This document shows positions 6,231 through 16,711 of a stretch of DNA of 64,000 nt, one piece after another. The stretch is from assembly GCA_963823665.1 (NCBI GenBank), contig CAWGMQ010000012.1:32001-96000 (forward strand), in the 5' to 3' direction. The notes below the pieces were generated by a model that saw only the letters and a program-made list of their open reading frames with translations, did not search any database and was not told the DNA's origin. Both the position numbers and the translations under genes were made by a program. The DNA comes from an uncultured Planctomycetota bacterium (GTDB lineage: Bacteria; Planctomycetota; Planctomycetia; Isosphaerales; Isosphaeraceae). Numbering within the stretch: position 1 is the first letter of the stretch; every line of letters starts with the position of its first letter.

Positions 6231-7825
6231 TCACTCCGGCCGGAGGACCCGGAAGCTCTCGAATGTGACGACGAATGGCTGGCGTGACGAGCTGATCGCA
6301 GCGACGCCCAGCTTGAGCTTCGCAGGTAACTTGATAATGCGCGGCGGAAAGGCGCGCCAAGCCATGCCGTCGATGCTGACCTGCGCGCTGAATTGATCGC
6401 CATGACGTTCCAGGTGCAGCAGGGTTGGTTCGTCAGGGAGCTGATGGCCGCCCTCCGGCGGTATGAGCCGGCCGTCGCGACGTTCTTGAAAAAGGGAGTA
6501 CGGAATCAACTGGCCGTTCCGGACGATCGCGGCGCGTTCCAGCCGGAGGTAGTTACCCTCGTCACTCCATAGCAACAGCCCCGCACCGACGAACGGGAAA
6601 ACCCTGGGATTGGCCGACGGCCCGCCGGGCTTGAGTGTGCCCCCTACTTTGAGATCAGCGATGAAGTCTCCCTCGATTTGCGCAACACTCGCGGCGCATT
6701 GAGGGTCTTTGCCTCGGCCTCGAGACCGTGCCCTTTCCGTGGCGCTGCCGGTGCGGGTACCTTGATCGTGAGCCGGCCGTCGGCCAAGTTGAACTCGCAA
6801 TCGCCATCAGGATCGATCGGCTCGCCCCATCCCTTCAAGATGCCGCGCGAGGAGACGGCCCTCTTCTGAGTCTCGGCGACTTCGGGAGCGGGAGCGACGG
6901 CCACAATGGCGAGGGCTGGACTATCCCCGGCCGATGCCTTCCCTACCGACGCATAGGACACTGCGACTGCCCCGCCCGTCGCCAGACCGGTTGCAAGCAG
7001 GGACAGGCCGATCCATTTGAGCTGGGTGAGCTTCATGGTCGTGAGAACTCCCTCAGTGAGAGCGAGCACCGGCGCCGCTGCGGTGTCCACCTGACTCGTC
7101 GTGGCCGAGCTCCATCGAACCACCGTGTCGACGGTCGCAGAAACCAGCGACGGCGGCACGACCTCGATGCAATCCCCGGCCGGTACGCTCGGCCGGCGCC
7201 GAAGAACGCAGCCGTCGGTACGTATCCCTGTCGCGTCAGGCGTTTCTTGAGCAAGTCGCGTCCTCGAGCCAGGCGGCTGCGGCACGGTACCGACGGGGCA
7301 CGAAAGTTCCCCGGCCGCTTCGTCGTGGGTCCGCCCTTCGAGGTAGCACAATATCAGTGGCGCCCGATACCTTTCGGGCAACCGGTTCAACTCCTGTTCG
7401 AGCGCCGCGGCCGCCTCGCGGTCTTCCGAGGAATTGCTCGCTCCAAGAGCCTCGGGAGTCGCGACGAGCAGCTCGCAGTTCCGACGGCGCAGCGCACGCG
7501 CCCGTGCGTGCCGTGCGATTCGGAAAGCCACTCGGTAGAGCCATGTCGCCACAAAGGTTCGGTCGCGGATCGCCCGGCCCGTACGAGCCAGCGTCAAGAA
7601 CGTTGCCTGAAAGGTGTCTTCAACATCCCGTGGGTCGCGGAGCATCCGCCGGCACAAACCCAGCACCATCGGACCGTGCCGATCAACCAAGACCGCGAAC
7701 GCCGTCTCGTCGCCGTTCGTCAGGTAGTGCTCGAGAAGCTGTCCGTCTGCCAGACCGCCCAGCGTCCCGTCGCTAAACAGTTGACGAACTTGCCGCAAGA
7801 CAATCCCCCGCCCGGCGCACGACAT
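6231..7825 (-). CDS. ECF sigma-70 factor with TM segment and C-terminal DUF1349/ConA-like domain; frameshifted
   Basis: DGQLLEHY..DETAFAVLVDRHGPMVLGLCRRMLRDPRDVEDTFQATF, LPERYRAPLILCYLEG, a hydrophobic segment, then WGEPIDPDGDC, NAPRVL, GAGLLLWSDEGNYLRLERA and LKLGVAA. Confidence 0.85.
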
Positions 7826-12445: not shown

Positions 12446-12832
12446 TCAGCGATGGGCCGCGGTTCGTTCCTTCCAAGCTGCCAACGCCGCTTCGAGCAGT
12501 TGCTTCAACCCAGGGTTTGCGACGTCGTCTACACTGCGGAGCTGCACATGGCGGTGAACCTTGCCGCTTCCCTGTAGCAACCCATGAGGATCCGGCAGCT
12601 CAGTGCCGCGCGCGATCCCAACTTTGACGCCAGTCTTGCTCATGAGCAGCGTGCAGATCGTGTCCTTGTATCCCGGTCCGTAACCGTAACCGAGGAGCCG
12701 CGCCGATCGATCGACCGTTTCGATCGCATTCGGCACTGTCTGCCCGACAAGCTGACGCGCTGCTCGCGCGATCTCTTTCACAGCCAGTGGATAGAGGGCC
12801 AGAAACGCGTGAACATCTGGTGGGATCGGCAT
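12446..12832 (-). CDS. DUF1801 (YdhG-like) family protein
   Basis: ARQLVGQTVPNAIETV...ICTL...GTELPDPHGLLQGSGKVHRHV. GAGGAG lies upstream of the ATG at 12832. Confidence 0.75.
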   Translation of the reverse strand: MPIPPDVHAFLALYPLAVKEIARAARQLVGQTVPNAIETVDRSARLLGYGYGPGYKDTICTLLMSKTGVKVGIARGTELPDPHGLLQGSGKVHRHVQLRSVDDVANPGLKQLLEAALAAWKERTAAHR

Positions 12833-12977
12833 TTTGCTTCTCCTCGTTGCCGCATCGGCGCATCGGCATATGACGCGCACCGATCCTGCCTTTTCAGCCC
12901 GGCGCGTCAGTGACGGGGGAGTTAAACCAGCCTCTTGCACCCCCGGCACCCTAGTATCGTCAGACGGCCCGCTCCCT

Positions 12978-13580
12978 TCAACTCCCCGCCACCTCTTTCC
13001 ATCGCTTGTCCCATTCCCACATTTGAAGCGCCTGTTCCGGCGTTAGCGGCGCGCCGAGTTGACTTGCCCAGTGGCAGATCTGGCCCCGGTGGTGGGCATC
13101 GTGGGTGATCGCGCCGCAGACGAGGGCGACGACATCCGGACGAAGGTCGGGCACGTGGCCACCGCCTTCGATCGAGTGTTTGATCAAGCGTACCATTGCG
13201 GCCGCGCTCGTCGCGAGCGCCTCCTTGGCGTCTTCGGGTGTGACCTCCGCGCGGTCGAGTCTGGCCGGCGGATTCTCGCTCCGGAGTGACATGGCAAGCC
13301 GCATGCAGCGCACGTTATGCATGTGGGCAAACGTCGTGGCGATGTTGCGTCGTTTGGAGCAAGGGGGCTGGGCGCGCCAGATCTTGGGGTCGAGAGCGGC
13401 GATCAGGACCTGGTTGATGCGCTCATTGGTCAGGTAAGCCTCGACCAAAGCACGTCCCAAGTTGACCGGCTCGCGCCGGTTTCGTGCCGCGGCGTTGCTC
13501 GGCGGCTTGAGCGGCAATTTCTTCGTCGACTTTACCGGGTCGGGAGATTTTTTGCCGTCTGTTGCGTTGCTCTTGGGCAT
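12978..13580 (-). CDS. DinB family protein
   Basis: His motifs FAHMHNVR and HDAHHRGQI, ending in MWEW. Confidence 0.8.
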   Translation of the reverse strand: MPKSNATDGKKSPDPVKSTKKLPLKPPSNAAARNRREPVNLGRALVEAYLTNERINQVLIAALDPKIWRAQPPCSKRRNIATTFAHMHNVRCMRLAMSLRSENPPARLDRAEVTPEDAKEALATSAAAMVRLIKHSIEGGGHVPDLRPDVVALVCGAITHDAHHRGQICHWASQLGAPLTPEQALQMWEWDKRWKEVAGS

Positions 13581-13670
13581 GTGCGATCTCCGCAAGTGGC
13601 CGACCTGACTTTGAATGTTTCCAGGTGAATGCAATAATCGAACGGTCTGAAGCCATTGCAGGAGACCACC

Positions 13671-13860: not shown

Positions 13861-15225
13861 TCACTTCCTCAGAAACAGCCAGACGTAGCCATGCGGGGTA
13901 TCCTGGCCGTTGGCAATCGTTCCCGGGCCTGGAGGCTTGAGGTAGCGCTTCAGGCTCTGGATTATCGGTTCCATCTCGTCGGTGATCGCTTTGTTCTCGG
14001 GCCTCGCTTCGATCTCTGCCTGCTTTTTGCGAACTTTCGCCTGAACCTCGGCCGTGAGTTGCTCTTTAATGGGAATCGGCTCCCAGAACTTCAACATCTC
14101 CTCCTGGATCTTCCTGTTTCGTTCGGCTACGGTCGGCTCAAGCCGTTCCAGCCTAGAGCGGAGCTCGGCGACTTCCCCGCGCTCGGCTTTTGAGAGATTG
14201 GCGCGGGGCGAGATGTAGGTGCAAAAATCGCCGACAAGTAGGTCCAGTTTGCCATCGCGGTTGTAATCGGTTACGTCGATCTGGGAGCGAATGCCCGGCT
14301 TCGGCTCTTCTTCGGAGTCAAGAAACTCCGAATAGCCAATTCCCTTGTGCCGAGTGCACTAGCTCGACGGCCTCGGCCAATTCGGGGCGCCCAGCGTTTC
14401 CGACGTTTCGGAACCAGTAGACCGCCCCGGTGGCCGCGCCGGAGAGGATGTCCCAGCGTCCGTCGCCATCCCAGTCGGCAACCACCGGCGTACAATGGCC
14501 CTCCGGGATCTGGATCGGCTTGCCTCCGGCCGCGATCACGATGTTGCTCGTGGCGAACGCCGGCGCCCGACGCGTTCCTTCGTTGAGTCGTAAGTTCAGG
14601 CCGCCGACGTATGCCGCCGAAGAGGAGGTCGAGGTCTCCATCTCCGTCCCAGTCGACCATCGCCGGCCAGCTCCCGAACGACTCGACGCTAACCTCTTGA
14701 TCGGGCTTTCGCAGCACGGGCTTGCCCGACTTGTCCTTGATCGTCTCTCGGGCCTTGAACTTGCCCTTTCCCTCGCCGCGAAAGAGATAGATCTCGCCAG
14801 GGTCATACGAGCCGCTGATCAGGTCACGAGTGCCGTCGCCGTCGAGGTCCACAAACTGTGGACTGGAACCGATGCATCAGTAGATGGGCACTGTGGCGAC
14901 GACACCCCCAGCCATGAGCAACTCGCCCGCGGCGAACTTCGGCTCCAGGACCGTTCCAACGTTGCGATAGAGGCGGAACTCTCCGCTAAAATCGCCCACG
15001 AGCAGATCTCGCCGGCCGTCGCCATCCACATCGTGGAGGCACGGGCCCGGAGTGGGCCCACTGGGGGCCGGAATCGATGACCGCGCCGGCCGCCATGAGC
15101 CGGACGGGTTTCTGAAAGACCGAGTTGGGGGCATCGTCCTTCGTGGAGGTGGAGGATGGCGGCGCTTCCGCCCCGAACGCCGCAACCGCGGCCAGCGCCG
15201 CGATGGACCGGCAGAGCTTTTTCAT
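13861..15225 (-). CDS. exported FG-GAP/VCBS-repeat beta-propeller protein; probable selenoprotein (in-frame TGA at 14877-14879); also frameshifted
   Basis: Signal peptide MKKLCRSIAALAAVAAFG. Repeats: DVDGDGRRDLLVG, DLDGDGTRDLISG, DWDGDGDLDLL, DWDGDGRWDILSG, DYNRDGKLDLLVG. ORFs 14877..15185 and 14271..14852 are in the same frame across TGA (VPIY*CIGSSPQFVD). It ends HGYVWLFLRK*. Confidence 0.85.
14847..14863 (-). promoter_or_regulatory. putative bacterial SECIS element
   Basis: Minus strand reads TGA, 13 nt, then GTCCACA-GTT-TGTGGAC. This is a perfect 7-bp stem with a G-U-U apical loop starting at nt 21 after the TGA. Confidence 0.7.
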
Positions 15226-15321: not shown

Positions 15322-16711
15322 TCAGCGGCTCCGTCTGGCCGTCTGTGCGCGCACCTTGTTCTTTTGGTGCTGCGCTACCAAGATCTCGAACAAGTCGTCC
15401 TTCTCGCCGCGCTGGGTCAGATCCTGGCCCGATTTCACGACACCAATATATCCCACGCACATCTCGTCCGTCACTTCGTAACCCCATTTGACAATCTTGG
15501 GTGGTCGGTGGGGATTGCGCGCGTGGTCCGAGTTGTCAAAGTGGGCCACCACAGATACGACTGAGCCCCTGGTCAGACGGATTGGTTCCTCGAAGGAGTA
15601 TGTGTTCTGCCAGGAAGGGTCCCAGTCAGCGATGTAGATCAGGTCCTGCCTGCGACCGCCGGGGTAGGTGACTGTCATGCGAAAATCGCGCCCGAGCTGG
15701 TGCATGTGGGGAGTGACAGCGAGGGCTTCGACGTCGACGGGGACGTACCAGGTTGCTTTGACCTCGACGTTCTTGTTGCCGGGCGAAAGCCGGAAGTCGG
15801 AATTCGTGACGTTAGCCCACTGGAGTGTCCGTTTGACCGGCTTACGAGCGAAGTGAAGCCCCACGCGGGTGCGGTCGACCTCGCGCTTGCCGTCGGGGTG
15901 GTAGTGGACTTGCAGGATCACGTCGGCCCCGCGGGGCAAAGAGCGGCCGATCCCATCAGGGAGGCGCCGGGCTCGTTGCCGGCGGCCCAGCCGCCCAGGT
16001 CGCCGGCGATCTCGACGCCCGCGCCCGCATATGAGGTATACCCCGGCCCCGGCTCGGCCGCGTCCCGCTGGCGGCCGTAGCCGTGGGTGTCGACGAACGC
16101 CATCATATGGTGCACGACGCGGCGATTGCCCGGATTGTATTCAATCGCGGAGATCAGCACGTCACGCGGAAGGTCCGTCGGGATCACAAAGCAGCGGTAG
16201 ACATCCGGGCCCGCGGCGGGGACGTTGAAGTCTTCCGCTAGCTCGATAACGAAGTCGGGCGCACCGAGCGCCCACCCCTCGCTAAACCGCGCCGGCGCGG
16301 GCATGTGCTTCGGTTCACCCCGCGGCGCACCCGCGCCCGCCCACGCCGTGAGCACGGTGATCTCGTCGTCGGTCATCGAACGGTCGTGCATGAGTTTGGG
16401 CCGACCCCAGACGTCGGCTTCCAGGGAGGCATCGACCGGTCGAGAGCCACCGCGGCAATATCCAACGAGCGCTTCCGAACTTGCTCGTACGTCTCCAACC
16501 CGAACGGGCCGATCTCACCGCGACGATGGCAACCCTGGCACCGCTTTTGAAGGATCGCCGCCACGTCCTTGGTAAACGTCGGCGTTCCGGCTTTTCGAGC
16601 CGGCTCTTCGCCCTGCGTCACGGAAGTGCCAAGCCAAAGGCCCCAGACGGCGAAGCCCAGACGCGCGAGGATTGACCACCCCACGGCAGCACCGATTTGT
16701 CGCAACCTCAT
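15322..16711 (-). CDS. cytochrome c + copper type II ascorbate-dependent (PHM-like) monooxygenase domain protein; frameshifted
   Basis: PTFTKDVAAILQKRCQGCH, MPPW, DVYRCFVIPT, RRVVHHM, LQVHYHPDG, PHMHQLG, WDPSWQ, FDNS, DEMC. Confidence 0.85.

Follow-up and report, generated by a model that had tools for sequence, protein, structure and literature searches.

A gene on the minus strand of a planctomycete DNA stretch, at positions 13861 to 15225, very probably encodes a selenoprotein in which codon 115, an in-frame UGA, is read as selenocysteine (Sec, U) and is directly followed by cysteine. The stretch analyzed, hereafter the window, comprises 64,000 nucleotides (nt) from an uncultured member of the Isosphaeraceae (GenBank assembly GCA_963823665.1, contig CAWGMQ010000012.1, positions 32,001 to 96,000 of the forward strand). 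Taken as a whole, the data are quite likely to be best explained by a single gene for an exported five-bladed beta-propeller selenoprotein, which would use ordinary bacterial recoding and carry a vicinal redox center. The recoding mechanism is textbook; the family itself is new and, as far as searched, uncatalogued. The features on which this reading turns are given below in window coordinates.

13861–15225, minus strand: whole gene, with ATG at 15225 and its own stop TGA at 13863–13861; putative exported FG-GAP/VCBS beta-propeller selenoprotein
14877–14879, minus strand: in-frame UGA, codon 115 of the natural gene, assigned as probable Sec from the conservation of its alignment column and from Cys homologues
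14874–14876, minus strand: Cys codon TGC adjoining the Sec codon (vicinal U-C pair)
14847–14863, minus strand: putative core of a bacterial Sec insertion sequence (SECIS), with a stem of 6–7 base pairs (bp), GUCCAC(A)/(U)GUGGAC, and an apical loop (A)GUU(U), 13 nt past the UGA

Reading Frame Around the UGA Codon

The minus-strand sequence around the TGA reads GTG CCC ATC TAC TGA TGC ATC GGT TCC AGT CCA CAG TTT GTG GAC CTC GAC GGC GAC GGC. With TGA taken as U it is translated as GGVVATVPIY-U-CIGSSPQFVDLDGDGTRDLISGSYD, in the same frame on either side of the TGA, and past VPIY, the TGA and Cys the frame runs on as IGSSPQFVDLDGDG. The initial annotation of this DNA had reported the TGA, the adjoining Cys codon and a perfect hairpin, GTCCACA-GTT-TGTGGAC (14863–14847), whose stem is separated from the TGA by 13 nt and whose loop starts 21 nt after it; all of these are confirmed in the sequence. 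It had also placed FG-GAP repeats in one frame before and after the TGA. This part holds, as FG-GAP_3 (PF13517) matches on both sides (window pieces at 66.6 and 32.7 bits, above the curated cut-off), but the gene also carries three frameshifts, to which the annotation merely alluded and which are considered below. Orthologues score 82–102 bits against the repeat profiles PF13517 and PF01839, and two of them, L025 (450 amino acids, aa) and L026 (461 aa), are unbroken except for a single TGA. The terminator of the gene is itself TGA, so UGA also serves as an ordinary stop in the source organism.

Conservation of the UGA Codon and Cysteine Homologues

A 144-residue in-frame segment was compared with 101 related genomes, 49 of which match at E ≤1e-8. 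The 15 best rows (at least 77 bits) contain exactly one in-frame TGA apiece, and the weaker rows belong mostly to another FG-GAP paralogue of 650–700 aa that is stop-free; at 14 loci of the related genomes the TGA stands in the same alignment column as that of the window. A second scan, with one genome per species, kept 79 loci, many of them distant FG-GAP proteins, and raised the number of sites with TGA in this column to 57. In the set of 57 sites used below, which includes the window, at least 30 open codons were demanded before the TGA, and one pattern match was removed for upstream stops. The initial annotation had proposed to look for variable stop codons at this position: the stop in the column is TGA at 57 of 57 sites, and TAA or TAG occurs at none.

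Cys follows the TGA directly in 52 of the 57 Sec sites. The other five lack a vicinal Cys and read U-D (L034, L064), U-S (L041), U-K (L122) or U-G (L073); in three of them a Cys stands three to five residues further on (U-DIGFC twice, U-KGANFC once), so that Sec may not in every case be partnered by the vicinal residue.

For Cys-containing homologues, a collection of 5.8 billion proteins was searched with L025, an intact orthologue with 78% identity over the segment. This search gave 1859 proteins at E ≤1e-10 among 8000 scored candidates, and the statements that follow concern the best 120 of the 1859. Twenty of them are C-terminal fragments of 329–332 aa covering 73% of the query; every match above 54% identity (19) is such a fragment, plus one more. 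In the two fragments that were aligned (P0002 and P0012), M replaces the Val of FVD, i.e., they start at a GTG within the hairpin. The initial annotation had anticipated that standard gene callers would split the gene, and the 20 closest database proteins among the matches listed are indeed such C-terminal pieces. Among the 100 full-length homologues, 99 have Cys-Cys at the position of U-C (93 by pattern, six by eye), and in the remaining one the site lay outside the stretch inspected. In the 93-row alignment A3, both C113 and C114 show almost no variation. Homologues have TGA or Cys in this column and never Trp, the residue for which a check had been suggested, and the hairpin is conserved with the TGA. 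Cys-Cys homologues are found in records named Lacipirellula parvula and Novipirellula rosea. In the database the homologues are named “hypothetical protein,” “FG-GAP-like repeat-containing protein” or “VCBS repeat-containing protein,” never selenoprotein.

According to record labels the Sec-forms belong mostly to the Planctomycetota (Gemmataceae, Isosphaeraceae, Phycisphaerales, Sedimentisphaerales, Brocadiaceae, and Tepidisphaeraceae), with a small number of bins under the labels Verrucomicrobia, Marinifilaceae or Chitinophaga; single-contig or near-complete genomes are among those with Sec-forms. The family is widespread in Planctomycetota and is also present in Verrucomicrobiota and Bacteroidota. 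Its distribution is patchy even among close relatives, and the source genome contains no paralogue beyond the gene itself, the next matches being at 26.6 and 22.6 bits. One contig, L068, from a bin labelled Chitinophaga sp., bears two adjoining Sec-form genes of different subfamilies (6277–6336 and 7692–7751), with the motifs VW-U-CTSSTPQFVD and NW-U-CIGMAPQFVD and a hairpin at each.

The Hairpin Downstream of the UGA Codon

In the published consensus, the bacterial SECIS has an apical loop of 3–9 nt, an upper stem of 4–16 bp and a spacing of 16–37 nt between UGA and loop, with G as the first or second loop nucleotide and mostly G or U after it, and a minimum free energy of -7.5 kcal/mol or lower (PMC13188914). 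The window hairpin lies within all these limits, with a 7-bp stem, the loop GUU, a spacing of 20 nt and -8.4 kcal/mol when folded alone; it may alternatively be described as a 6-bp stem with the loop AGUUU. The 54-nt SECIS region folds at -16 kcal/mol. On the 57-sequence alignment A2, RNAalifold recovers the same helix. Across these sequences 92.4% of the cells are paired, versus 28–48% when the partner is slid by 1–3 columns, and changes on both sides are found at four of six pairs (10 cells in total), which was reached by none of 500 shuffles. Compensatory changes include CCG...GCG (L074, L086, L122), CUG...GCA (L087), CCC CGG...GGG (L041), and CAU...AUG (L061). A script that selects the longest stem picked another stem in 11 of the 57 sequences, and the column-based pair counts are the more trustworthy. 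A search of 14700–15000 against Rfam, with E values of up to 10 allowed, yielded no matching family.

As a control, Cys-forms with similar peptides were compared with the U-C forms at five core pairs. All five pairs are present in 48 of 52 U-C forms and four in the other four, whereas the nine Cys-Cys sites keep 5, 4, 3, 2, 2, 2, 2, 2, and 1. The hairpin Pro codon is CCA in 40 of 52 U-C forms and in 0 of 9 Cys-Cys sites; elsewhere in 41 Sec-form genes CCA accounts for 82 of 1011 Pro codons (8.1%). Because Cys-forms with similar peptides mostly lack the hairpin pairs and, at the nine sites, never use CCA, the hairpin is, judged by this comparison, selected as RNA structure, beyond the peptide that it encodes. 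Both the unusual codon choice in the hairpin and its assignment as a SECIS, put forward in the initial annotation, are borne out by these counts, by the agreement with the published limits and by the compensatory changes in the 57 sequences.

Selenocysteine Machinery

The source genome (16.46 Mb in 12 contigs, 91.9% complete) encodes selA (421.6 bits), selB (364.1 bits, cut-off 242), and selD (381.1 bits), all above curated cut-offs, together with a tRNA-Sec (75.2 bits, likewise above its curated cut-off) that ARAGORN calls SeC with the anticodon tca. The set of genes that had been proposed for a search is thus complete. SelA (E ≤1e-30) is found in 66 of the 101 related genomes and in 12 of the 14 relatives with a verified TGA. 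Since SelA is common in the group anyway, this co-occurrence is compatible with the Sec reading but only weakly discriminating.

Integrity of the Gene

As assembled, the gene contains three frameshifts in 1.36 kb (about one per 450 bp). All are single extra bases, none lies within a long homopolymer, and their approximate positions are the following.

15049: frameshift 1, extra base, absent in one independent contig (run X1)
14614: frameshift 2, extra base, absent in one independent contig (run X3)
14356: frameshift 3, extra base, absent in two independent contigs (runs X1 and X3)

Parts of the stretch are present in seven public runs of soil metagenomes, which come from two studies, and contigs of four of these runs were compared. 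Contigs from X1 and X2, which come from different studies, span 14774–15142 with one or two base differences, none of them at 14877–14879, where both have TGA and not the TGG or TGC that the initial annotation had suggested checking for. Every contig that crosses a break site is one base short there, and the contigs without the extra bases are otherwise at least 99% identical or have only few differences. Deleting the three extra bases yields a single frame of 453 codons with one TGA, at codon 115, and the end HGYVWLFLRK; breaks aside, the window sequence retains every invariant residue of the family. Because all three breaks vanish in independent contigs, they most likely arose through erroneous insertion of single bases during assembly, and the natural gene is intact.

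The adjacent upstream gene (15322–16711, minus strand) is split into the overlapping open reading frames (ORFs) 16373–16711, 15918–16391, and 15322–15939, apparently by frameshifts as well. Its first piece has a CxxCH haem motif (KRCQGCHR) and its last piece matches PF03712, the C-terminal domain of copper type II ascorbate-dependent monooxygenases (32.3 bits). As this neighboring gene is broken in the same way, assembly error fits better than decay, and the initial annotation had likewise noted that indel breaks are frequent in this contig. The frameshifts in the window should hence not be taken as decay, and for other apparent pseudogenes of this contig assembly error should be considered as a possible cause.

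On the downstream side, window positions 12446–13634 (minus strand) encode a DinB-family protein (PF05163, 30.5 bits) and a DUF1801 protein (PF08818, 39.1 bits), with no evident link to selenoproteins.

Alternative Readings of the UGA Codon

Several observations weigh against a Sec codon in an intact gene. The independent contigs are short (151–349 bp) with a depth of 2–4, so differences seen in a single contig may be errors, and they could stem from a close strain rather than from the same organism. A genome of the same genus, G001 (16.1 Mb, 84% complete), gave no match at E ≤1e-8, although it has SelA. No SelA was found in the TGA-bearing genomes G004 and G030, which are 76% and 73% complete. 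With respect to the hairpin, the folding energy of the 54 nt of the window is ordinary for their composition (z = -0.26, 80 of 200 shuffles at least as stable), the covariation consists of the 10 cells only, in a highly conserved stem, and the hairpin overlaps the conserved peptide PQFVD, so that its conservation derives partly from the protein; moreover, one of the nine Cys-form sites holds all five core pairs and another four.

The thin coverage, the possible origin of the contigs in another strain, the sister genome without a match and the density of breaks as assembled would all suit a dead gene with genuine frameshifts, whose TGA would be either another lesion or a Sec codon that the pseudogene had inherited. 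This is nevertheless very unlikely, given that the breaks are all single extra bases, each missing from near-identical contigs, that the neighboring gene is broken alike and that the invariant family residues are all kept. Public gene calls, which yield 329-aa products from the hairpin GTG, are what would be expected if the UGA were a true stop separating a 114-aa N-terminal piece from a 329-aa piece that restarts at that GTG. Such an arrangement would cut the propeller within blade 1/2 and leave the C-terminal piece without a signal peptide, and it leaves aside that the stop is TGA at each of the 57 sites, that the Cys-forms are continuous single proteins and that the hairpin co-varies; its probability is accordingly put at a very low level, below that of the dead gene. 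Insertion of another amino acid, through a deviant code or general read-through, has the open frame only in its favor and is hardly credible, considering that the gene's own terminator is TGA, that the homologous residue is Cys and that the Sec machinery is complete. A real selenoprotein gene, with the UGA at codon 115 decoded as Sec, is the reading adopted in what follows.

Fold of the Protein

Further features of the gene concern export and the C-terminal part of the protein.

15169–15225, minus strand: probable signal peptide of the Sec (secretory) type, MKKLCRSIAALAAVAAFGA, judged by eye
13939–14190 (approximate), minus strand: predicted helical hairpin ahead of the last strands, placed by homology to residues 342–424 of the L025 model
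13864–13893, minus strand: C-terminal HGYVWLFLRK strands, probably closing the propeller (strands 438–441 and 443–447 of the L025 model)

All homologues aligned start with a short hydrophobic leader, and we infer that the window protein is exported by means of a signal peptide at its N-terminus. AlphaFold2 was run on alignment A3 with L025 as the first sequence and Cys standing for Sec; the model is therefore that of the orthologue and not of the window protein. It has a mean predicted local distance difference test score (pLDDT) of 91.8 and a predicted TM-score (pTM) of 0.88, the leader (residues 1–26) being below 50 in pLDDT. Five repeats are present, with a DxDGDG loop in each. Helices 342–377, 388–403, and 405–424 make up a long helical hairpin (342–424), and the final two strands (438–441 and 443–447) correspond to the invariant HGYVWL motif, in which G442, V444, and W445 are invariant in alignment A1.

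The top Foldseek matches in the Protein Data Bank are the TcB propeller, ITFG2, PVL lectin, CRTAC1, and integrin alpha, with TM-scores of 0.27–0.36. A whole-bank structural alignment placed five-bladed propellers of the glycoside hydrolase (GH) families GH43, GH62, and GH32 at the top (Z 18.6–18.4; 246–273 residues aligned, root-mean-square deviation 3.4–3.8, identity 8–12%). On the basis of the model, this close orthologue can confidently be predicted to be a five-bladed FG-GAP propeller. A seven-bladed propeller of the integrin type was rejected for the L025 model in view of its five DxDGDG repeats, its five-bladed best matches and the TM-scores of 0.27–0.36 for the integrin type. A glycosidase function was likewise rejected, as the matches to GH43, GH62, and GH32 reflect fold geometry only, at 8–12% identity.

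In L025 numbering, Sec113 and Cys114 are part of an 11-residue loop that connects the outer portion of blade 1 with the strand that opens blade 2 (120–122); other conserved residues are Y137, D138, H240, R309, and Q311. The first strand of a propeller blade is the innermost one. Because the loop leads into the innermost strand of blade 2, the strand order would place the U-C pair near the entrance of the central channel.

Possible Function of the Sec-Cys Pair

Some members of the family are fused to a domain that may indicate the chemistry of the pair. The Sec-form L059 (679 aa) matches DsbD_N (PF11412) at 36.7 bits and has the motif YQTCNAEMCYPP, and the Cys-form L055 matches the same domain at 30.1 bits. 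Among the best 120 homologues, 13 Cys-forms, each about 600 aa long, combine the invariant Cys-Cys with a C-terminal domain in which YQxCxxxxCLxP is invariant. In DsbD, the N-terminal domain is where the electrons of a thiol-disulfide relay are handed over in the periplasm. Complexes between the propeller part and the DsbD_N-like domain were predicted for the fused Cys-forms, with a median score of 0.45 (runs at 0.66, 0.01, and 0.45) against 0.01 for the best control; at least 47% of the contacts agree between runs and the pLDDT of the partner is at least 79. In the calibration of the tool, 116 of 157 solved complexes attained its mark, as did 2 of 215 mismatches; at scores of 0.60 or lower, only 18 of the 157 solved complexes but both mismatches did so. 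The prediction thus weakly supports a contact between the propeller and the DsbD_N domain.

The following scheme is consistent with these observations. One gene would give rise to an exported protein of about 450 residues, composed of a five-bladed FG-GAP/VCBS propeller and a C-terminal helical hairpin. The SECIS hairpin within the coding sequence, 13 nt past the UGA, would recruit SelB with Sec-tRNA(Sec), the selA, selB, selC, and selD genes of the genome supplying what is needed for recoding at codon 115. The Sec-Cys pair, in the loop toward the innermost strand of blade 2, would serve as a redox center outside the cytoplasm, and in some members this center could be recharged via the fused thiol-disulfide relay domain that resembles the N-terminal part of DsbD. 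Chances are about even that the vicinal pair, U-C or in the Cys-forms C-C, is a selenenylsulfide or disulfide center with redox activity of this kind. More tentatively, the family might constitute a new class of extracytoplasmic selenoenzymes, with a catalytic Sec-Cys selenenylsulfide at the channel mouth of a five-bladed propeller, a reductant delivered by the DsbD pathway and a substrate such as an oxidized small molecule, a metalloid or a component of the envelope.

This functional assignment has points against it. The window protein is without a DsbD_N domain, and the support from complex prediction is weak. No shared neighbor emerged when Pfam was applied to 28 ORFs around the window gene and around L054 and L059 (Sec-forms) and L055 and L056 (Cys-forms). 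Other sources added no functional lead: the longer relatives (120 listed, 789–2250 aa) are generic multi-domain FG-GAP proteins with no recognized redox domain in their Pfam lists, NCBIfam gave matches at chance level only, and Pfam recognized repeats only.

A real selenoprotein could instead use U-C as a site for soft metals or metalloids (Hg, Cu, As, Se), the propeller having a periplasmic binding or detoxifying role. In Table 1 of PMC13188914 adjacent Sec/Cys motifs belong mostly to metal-related families: GxUC is found in the CopZ family and CU in the MerB-like lyase SaoL, HgcA, SaoC, and the metal-binding MbdU (PMC13188914). The table also contains CU in the KCU-star family and UGC in DUF1573 and TlpA-like proteins. 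The fusions in both Sec- and Cys-forms are, however, to the DsbD_N relay domain and not to metal-handling domains, and there are no mer, ars or cop genes among the neighbors examined, so that a metal site is considered rather unlikely, and less probable than a redox center.

Relation to Known Systems

In its decoding the gene resembles those that rely on SelB and an intragenic SECIS, such as Escherichia coli fdhF (PMC13188914), with which it shares the in-frame UGA, a 3' hairpin inside the ORF with G then U in the loop, 19–20 nt from UGA to loop, selA, selB, selC, and selD in the genome, and Cys homologues. It differs from them in that the product is neither a molybdoenzyme nor a protein of the thioredoxin fold, and in that the hairpin sequence is family-specific, with no Rfam match. 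With the FG-GAP/VCBS propellers (PF13517, PF01839; integrin alpha, PVL lectin, CRTAC1, ITFG2, TcB) it has in common the repeat signature with the DxDGDG loop, but the L025 model contains five repeats and its TM-scores to them are low (0.27–0.36). To our knowledge, no FG-GAP propeller or five-bladed GH propeller has Sec or a conserved Cys-Cys at this loop.

Vicinal pairs are known from other redox proteins. The C-terminal Gly-Cys-Sec-Gly of mammalian thioredoxin reductase contains such a pair, which can form an eight-membered selenenylsulfide ring and serve as a redox center; its order is C-U and not U-C, it is part of the flexible tail of a flavoenzyme, and it depends on a eukaryotic SECIS in the 3' untranslated region. 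Methanol dehydrogenase with pyrroloquinoline quinone (PQQ) is a periplasmic beta-propeller enzyme with a vicinal Cys-Cys disulfide, but its PQQ propeller is eight-bladed and bears no sequence relationship to the window protein; we know of no Sec form of it. DsbD (PF11412) shares the YQxC...C domain, which is fused C-terminally in one Sec-form and 13 Cys-forms, although the fusion here is to a propeller instead of to membrane and thioredoxin-like parts, and the window protein does not have the domain. The catalogued Sec/Cys selenoproteins are similar in having an adjacent or near-adjacent pair, and many are exported or belong to the envelope; their folds and domains are unrelated.

The initial annotation had suggested that the protein is not among the classical bacterial selenoprotein families. 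In agreement with this, none of the 119 prokaryotic families and subfamilies in Table 1 of a 2026 review is an FG-GAP/VCBS or propeller entry (PMC13188914), and the terms VCBS, propeller, FG-GAP, Planctomyc-, and repeat are mentioned neither in that review nor in the deep-Sep paper (PMC12013277). Selenoprotein candidates from two planctomycetes are tabulated in S9 Table of PMC4807772, which may include a member of the family. A full-text literature search found no bacterial selenoprotein of the FG-GAP/VCBS or beta-propeller type, most subscription journals being outside its coverage.

Implications

A large and widespread family is thus absent from the list of bacterial selenoproteins that was consulted and from the annotation models of the National Center for Biotechnology Information (NCBI), and because it is missing from them, public genomes and metagenomes systematically show its genes divided into two false ones. 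The Cys-Cys homologues in cultured strains offer a testable entry point to its function. Most known selenoproteins are thioredoxin-like in fold (PMC13188914). If the present reading is true, a beta-propeller carrying a Sec-Cys pair would broaden both the chemistry and the range of structures in which selenium is used.

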